The notes under the pieces were generated by a model. It was not told the origin of the DNA. It ran no database searches and was given only the letters and a program-made list of their open reading frames with translations. Of a stretch of 64,000 nucleotides of DNA, positions 40,306 through 40,794 are shown piece after piece (position 1 is the first letter of the stretch; each line of letters opens with the position of its first letter). The translations under genes and the position numbers were made by a program. The stretch is from NCBI RefSeq assembly GCF_057098645.1, contig NZ_CM169472.1; one strand, written 5' to 3'.

Positions 40306-40794
40306 TTATTGATAGTGTTTTATGTTCAGATAATGCCCGATGACCTTGTCATGCAGCTCCACCGATTTTGAGAACGACAGTGACTTCCGTCCCAGCCTTG
40401 CCAGATGTTGTCTCAGATTATGTCGCTCAATGCGCTGAGTGTAACGCTTGCTGATAACGTGCAGCTTTCCCTTCAGGCGTGATTCATACAGCGGCCAGCC
40501 ATCCGTCATCTATACCACGACCTCAAAGGCCGACAGCAGGCTCAGAATACGCTCCAGTGTGGCCAGAGTGCAGACGTGCGCCACAACCGTCCTCCGTATC
40601 CTGTCATACGCGTAAAACAGCCAGCGCTGACGTGATTTAGCACCGACGTAGCCCCACTGTTCGTCCATTTCAGCGCAGACAATCACATCACTGCCCGGTT
40701 GTATGCGCGAGGTTACCGACTGCGGCCTGAGTTTTTTAAGTGACGTAAAACCGTGTTGAGGCCAACGCCCATAATGCGTGCACTGGCGCGACAT
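40306..40794 (-). pseudogene. insB: IS1 insB interrupted by an in-frame TAG stop
   Basis: InsB frame is split into 94-aa and 67-aa ORFs by an in-frame TAG at 40510-40512 (minus strand), where I recall a Trp codon in canonical IS1 InsB (...[13 protein letters not shown]...). Confidence 0.75.

Follow-up and report, generated by a model that had tools for sequence, protein, structure and literature searches.

The IS1 copy that adjoins fecI in the stretch of DNA analysed here (64 kb, hereafter the window) combines an in-frame stop codon in its transposase gene with flanks that do not repeat one another. This raises the question of whether it is a mobile element that inserted at this site, or a remnant that marks the edge of a larger unit. 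The element is very probably an IS1F-type IS1 that has decayed to a non-autonomous state and forms the fixed left boundary of a horizontally moving fec module.

The locus lies in a tRNA-linked island. A tRNA-Phe gene of the pheV type, with yqgA upstream, represents the island attachment site (38585-38660, plus strand; ARAGORN, Rfam and RefSeq context), and it was the only Rfam hit near the IS1. It is followed by the integrase of the island, a tyrosine recombinase of 420 aa (38858-40120, plus strand; ORF list and near-identical RefSeq loci), by the remnant of a transferase gene, by the IS1 itself, by the small ORF ykiE (41075-41143, minus strand; annotation transferred from RefSeq) and by the ferric-citrate uptake operon fecIRABCDE (41280-48825, plus strand; ORF list and RefSeq).

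The IS1 occupies positions 40291-41043 and carries both insA and insB on the minus strand. Members of the IS1 family measure about 768 bp and end in imperfect terminal inverted repeats (GGTAATG...). The window copy has such repeats at 40291 and at 41043 and a length of 753 bp, which is shorter than 768 bp because of two internal deletions. The repeat at the insB end (IRR, 40291-40313), read from the sequence, begins with GGTAATGACTCC and differs at one position from that of other IS1F copies (alignment column 750). The repeat at the insA end (IRL, 41021-41043) ends in GGCAGCATTACC, is the same as in K-12 IS1F and carries the IS1 promoter region; a promoter-like site was found there on the minus strand (41036-41009). 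Both repeats are given here with the extent usual for IS1, 23 bp.

The insA gene (40713-40988, minus strand) is an intact ORF of 91 aa with a GTG start, and its product, which comprises a zinc ribbon and a helix-turn-helix, matches the Pfam families PF03811 (7e+1 bits) and PF12759 (97 bits). The A6C motif for programmed -1 frameshifting (AAAAAAC; 40731-40737, minus strand), likewise read from the sequence, is intact, and a modelled frameshift at this motif continues into the insB' frame. Private amino-acid changes were seen in the insA genes of fec-linked copies: Ser to Phe in the sequence TASQPG of the window copy, and His to Pro in the zinc motif CSHC of the K-12 copy (locus L002, 4528-4803), where EDL933 has the same nucleotide as K-12 at the corresponding alignment column. 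Such changes are consistent with a relaxed constraint on insA as well.

The window copy can be assigned to a known subtype. Its alignment with IS1F of K-12 shows 6 mismatches and 15 gap positions, whereas a canonical-type IS1 from another E. coli locus (L014) shares with IS1F an identity of only 92.7%. The architecture is that of consensus IS1 (IS1A/IS1E), i.e. insA, A6C, insB' and terminal repeats. IS1F has been classified as type IV, with 73 mismatches to the IS1 consensus and an identity of 90.5% (PMC12428005). K-12 IS1F, which consists of insA7 (b4294) and the pseudogene insB7 (b4576) in KpLE2, lies at the corresponding site next to ykiE-fecI and in the same orientation, and like the window copy, from which it differs by the 6 substitutions, it has a TAG codon, the same inner flank and no target-site duplication. 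The two copies differ in length (768 bp in K-12, 753 bp in the window) and in their outer flank, which is the yjhU side of the leuX island KpLE2 in K-12, and the transferase remnant of the pheV island in the window. In RefSeq, near-identical loci carry the description 'IS1 family transposase; programmed frameshift; internal stop'. The window element thus is of the already named and annotated IS1F/insB7 pseudogene type and is an ordinary relic of it; the lineage-specific deletions and an IS609-like relic, both described below, are minor new details.

The similarity between K-12 and the window extends well beyond the IS1. A conserved fec module common to both (40291-49797; megablast identity 99.4-99.5%) runs from the outer end of IS1F to an IS911/IS3-family element, over about 9.5 kb. 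The fec module occurs in various settings on chromosomes and plasmids, in each case together with this IS1, and since IS1 is known to form composite transposons, the element could be imagined as one arm of an IS1-flanked unit carrying fec. A second IS1 was sought throughout the 64-kb window, and none was found besides the copy at 40291-41043; at its far edge the segment common to K-12 and the window has the IS911/IS3-family element instead of an IS1, and the unit lacks a flanking duplication. For want of a second IS1 the composite-transposon reading fails, and we consider it improbable. Downstream of fecE (49723-56800) an IS3/IS911-family pseudogene and an IS21-family (ISSso4-like) sequence were observed. 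None of the complete E. coli genomes searched covers at least 80% of the region 48800-56800, and the source strain may therefore be alone in having this arrangement.

The initial annotation had proposed that insB is split by a TAG at a position occupied by Trp in canonical IS1, and that the InsAB' transposase is truncated as a consequence; these proposals proved correct. The TAG lies at 40510-40512 on the minus strand (the plus strand reads CTA) and replaces a Trp codon: the codon is TGG in the intact IS1F-type copies of plasmid p89_MLI108-3, plasmid NZ_CP065612 and EDL933 (L004, L006 and L007), and also in the canonical-type IS1 of L014. It divides insB' into an N-terminal piece of 94 aa (40513-40794, minus strand; ORF list) and a C-terminal piece of 67 aa (40306-40509 with the stop included, minus strand). 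The two pieces match positions 1-61 and 63-131 of the Pfam profile DDE_Tnp_IS1, i.e. the domain is interrupted between profile positions 61 and 63 of 131, which makes the window IS1 a defective member of the family. Judging from this split, the stop would precede the second catalytic Asp of the DDE triad. The modelled InsAB' frameshift product measures 159 aa in the window copy versus 232 aa in an intact IS1F-type copy. The intact copies (for example EDL933, WP_223718721.1; plasmid NZ_CP065612) are about 99% identical in sequence and share the ends and frameshift site of the window copy, but they have TGG and encode the full 232-aa InsAB'. The copy on plasmid NZ_CP065612 is moreover flanked by a perfect 9-bp duplication, AAAATGCCC, the mark of a real transposition.

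Both pieces of insB' carry an additional in-frame lesion. In the N-terminal piece 9 bp are missing (junction 40571/40572), whereby FGER is changed to C, and in the C-terminal piece 6 bp are missing (junction 40412/40413), corresponding to the loss of one TCAGAT unit and of the residues NL; five residues of the DDE domain are deleted in total. In the lineage of the window, these later deletions damaged both halves of insB further. A total of 43 E. coli records contain the 753-bp form at 100% identity. The initial annotation had overlooked both deletions as well as the reduced length.

Could such a copy nevertheless be active on its own? An ATG directly follows the TAG and the 67-aa piece retains the C-terminal half of the DDE domain, so one might envisage that readthrough of the UAG (amber suppression), or termination and reinitiation at UAG-AUG with two polypeptides rebuilding the transposase, restores autonomous transposition; the presence of TAG copies at several sites unrelated to fec would fit. 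The experimental data from K-12 argue against this. There transposition is the work of the consensus copies, IS1F makes no detectable native contribution, and IS1 hardly transposes at all in strains that retain only the non-consensus copies, with IS1F among them (PMC12428005). Furthermore, no target-site duplication was present at any of the TAG copies that were read, and the DDE domain of the window copy bears the two further deletions. Autonomous activity is therefore highly improbable.

Movement with outside help is a different matter. When InsAB' was overproduced, IS1F was the most often mobilised of the non-consensus copies, with 44% of the events (PMC12903888). The statement in the initial annotation that the copy is probably immobile on its own would thus stand as far as its own transposase is concerned, by analogy with the natively inactive TAG copy of K-12, but immobility would not extend to mobilisation in trans. 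By the same analogy we infer that the window copy would not move by itself and would be movable by the transposase of another IS1. Both additional deletions lie inside the element and would be expected to leave such mobilisation unimpaired, and the copy may still make the InsA repressor. It is best read as a non-autonomous IS1 that would have usable ends.

The 9 bp bordering the IS1 read CAAAAACCA on the outer side and GAAATCCCC on the fecI side; they match at 5 of the 9 positions and form no direct repeat, in agreement with the initial annotation, so that the 8-9 bp target-site duplication of the IS1 family is lacking. The inner flank GAAATCCCC is present in all nine fec-linked IS1F copies that were read, and the fecI-side junction is identical in K-12, in ATCC 8739, in plasmids and in four further sampled chromosomes. 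Among 5,426 complete genomes, 2,598 covered a 120-bp probe spanning the boundary between IS1F and ykiE. The outer flank on the other hand is of three types: the yjhU flank of K-12, the pheV transferase flank of the window, and a more common type A beside IS3 debris (...TTCGGGAGGA), which is the commonest of all. It had been suggested beforehand that the IS1 is a relic boundary rather than a recent simple insertion, and the constant fecI-side junction together with at least three types of outer flank bears this out. The sequence comparison shows the fecI-side junction to be old and constant. The type A flank was also compared with IS609 and with the sequence that precedes fecI in the IS1-free, Klebsiella-type locus; homology was rejected, as the alignment was no better than that of shuffled sequences.

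The inner flank contains the trace of a still older element. The 35 bp that separate the IS1 from ykiE, and slightly overlap the latter (41044-41078, plus strand), end in TCAA and correspond to the right end of an IS609-like element of the IS200/IS605 family, truncated by the IS1. They were recognised as such when a 20-mer from the region upstream of fecI was scanned in one genome per species with the aim of finding IS1-free fec loci, and the scan returned five MAG loci of the TnpB/IS605 type, in which Rfam identified nothing. The relic is identical to the right end of K-12 IS609 at 27 of 35 positions, the terminal AGGATGTCAA included, and at 32 of 35 positions to a MAG locus with an IS200-type TnpA-like ORF (L008). 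In another MAG locus (L009) an exact copy of the 20-mer follows a TnpB-like ORF of 391 aa at a distance of about 20 bp. In contrast to IS609 itself, whose TnpB is InsQ, the window relic resembles the element only over these 35 terminal bp: the hairpin is degraded and both tnpA and tnpB are absent. About 60 bp of the relic are kept in a Klebsiella-type fec plasmid that has no IS1. The presence of the relic at the inner flank indicates that IS1F cut into an older scar, and that its fecI-side junction sits within this IS609-like right end.

The outer side ends in the 3' remnant of a phosphoethanolamine transferase gene (40217-40290, minus strand), of which about 75 bp, i.e. about 24 codons and the stop, are left; its truncation point is the outer end of the IS1, and RefSeq describes it in near-identical loci as a pseudogene 'missing N-terminus'. 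FDAARGOS_1280 has the intact transferase gene, 1,674 bp long, after the same integrase, and the homology to the window ends exactly at the IS1 end. At first sight this would be compatible with a simple insertion of IS1 into the transferase gene, the 9-bp duplication having eroded since, given that the outer flank lies within that gene and that 5 of the 9 flanking positions still match. In the intact gene, however, CAAAAACCA is continued by CGGATTTCC..., and this continuation as well as the rest of the remaining ~1.6 kb of the gene, which were sought in the window, are absent from it. The inner flank is instead the conserved fec junction, present in 2,598 genomes and in other contexts. In addition, the reciprocal junction (the inner end of the IS1 joined to CAAAAACCA and the continuation of the transferase gene) was covered by no record among the complete E. 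coli genomes. An insertion with an eroded duplication is scarcely credible in view of these data.

The ancestral duplication that would be expected if IS1F had inserted beside fecI, i.e. GAAATCCCC joined to the outer end of IS1F, was also searched for in the complete E. coli genomes and gave no perfect match. The best match was an unrelated, canonical-type IS1 located between yjhI and sgcR (L014, NZ_CM129864.1, 3509-4276). This IS1 has a duplication of its own, GAAATCCC, which is nearly equal to the fecI-side flank of IS1F, probably by chance or through a target preference of IS1.

The outer junction of the decayed boundary copy most likely represents a secondary rearrangement, later than the junction on the fecI side, and a junction made later would explain why no target-site duplication is found. 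The following history can be proposed. The change from TGG to TAG in the middle of the DDE domain, common to the window copy and K-12 IS1F, would have come first. In a second step the IS1F-fec module would have been joined to the phosphoethanolamine transferase gene in the pheV island, likely routes being a deletion or replacement mediated by the IS1 end, or another illegitimate event. The 9-bp and 6-bp in-frame deletions would have been the third step; they came after the outer junction, because ATCC 8739 has the same outer junction as the window with a full 768-bp IS1F that contains the TAG. The arrangement of integrase, IS1 and fecI is common to 81 genomes.

There is virtually no chance that the TAG arose as an error of sequencing or assembly in an otherwise intact transposase: nothing speaks for it except that TAG is one base away from TGG, whereas 2,850 E. 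coli records, assembled independently, and 39 plasmids contain an exact 61-mer spanning the TAG, and K-12 MG1655 has the same base in a gene that is curated as a pseudogene. The TGG version of the 61-mer occurs in 4,233 records; these counts represent 61-mer matches per record and not genotypes per copy. Among the nine fec-linked IS1F copies that were read, window and K-12 included, seven have TAG (five of the seven others) and two have TGG. One of the TGG copies, in E. coli AVS0343 (L023, NZ_CP124517.1, 2293-3060), is flagged by RefSeq for an internal stop all the same. It has 11 mismatches to K-12 IS1F, which suggests an independent decay at a different position.

TAG-bearing IS1F copies were also found at at least five plasmid sites unrelated to fec, and hence the allele is not confined to the fecI locus. 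The plasmids concerned are pEk140_mcr-10, pEGY2, 90-9281, pHeN100_02, pWS3294A_133, pTW14425, pHH107-2 and pRHB33-C08_3 (L018-L021, L027-L030). The TAG copies on pEk140 and pEGY2 have two extra substitutions in common, and their flanks are different. A target-site duplication was sought around nine such plasmid copies and none was found, so that they provide no direct proof of a transposition of the TAG allele. Its spread to plasmids may have occurred through mobilisation in trans or through recombination among IS1 copies.

The distribution of the allele leads to a more speculative thought, which we regard as unlikely: that the TAG form of IS1F has succeeded as a non-autonomous lineage, which would be retained with fec in roughly half of E. 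coli, and at several plasmid sites, either by a borrowed transposase or by the inhibition of IS1. If the former were true, the lineage would persist by means of the transposase of intact IS1 copies. In the latter case, InsA and the 159-aa InsAB' fragment, DNA-binding and catalytically dead, would act together as a dominant inhibitor that tames the IS1 elements of the host.

For the decayed boundary element itself, the value of these observations lies in the annotation and the correct reading of the locus: the IS1 adjoining fecI is the classic IS1F pseudogene allele and not an error. Because its ends are intact, the window copy could still join in rearrangements, given the transposase of another IS1. 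The steps of decay could be used as markers of island lineages, i.e. the TAG, the pheV junction (81 genomes) and the two deletions (43 records). Finally, the IS1 marks the edge of the ~9.5-kb fec module, from IS1F to IS911, that has moved between tRNA-linked islands and plasmids.
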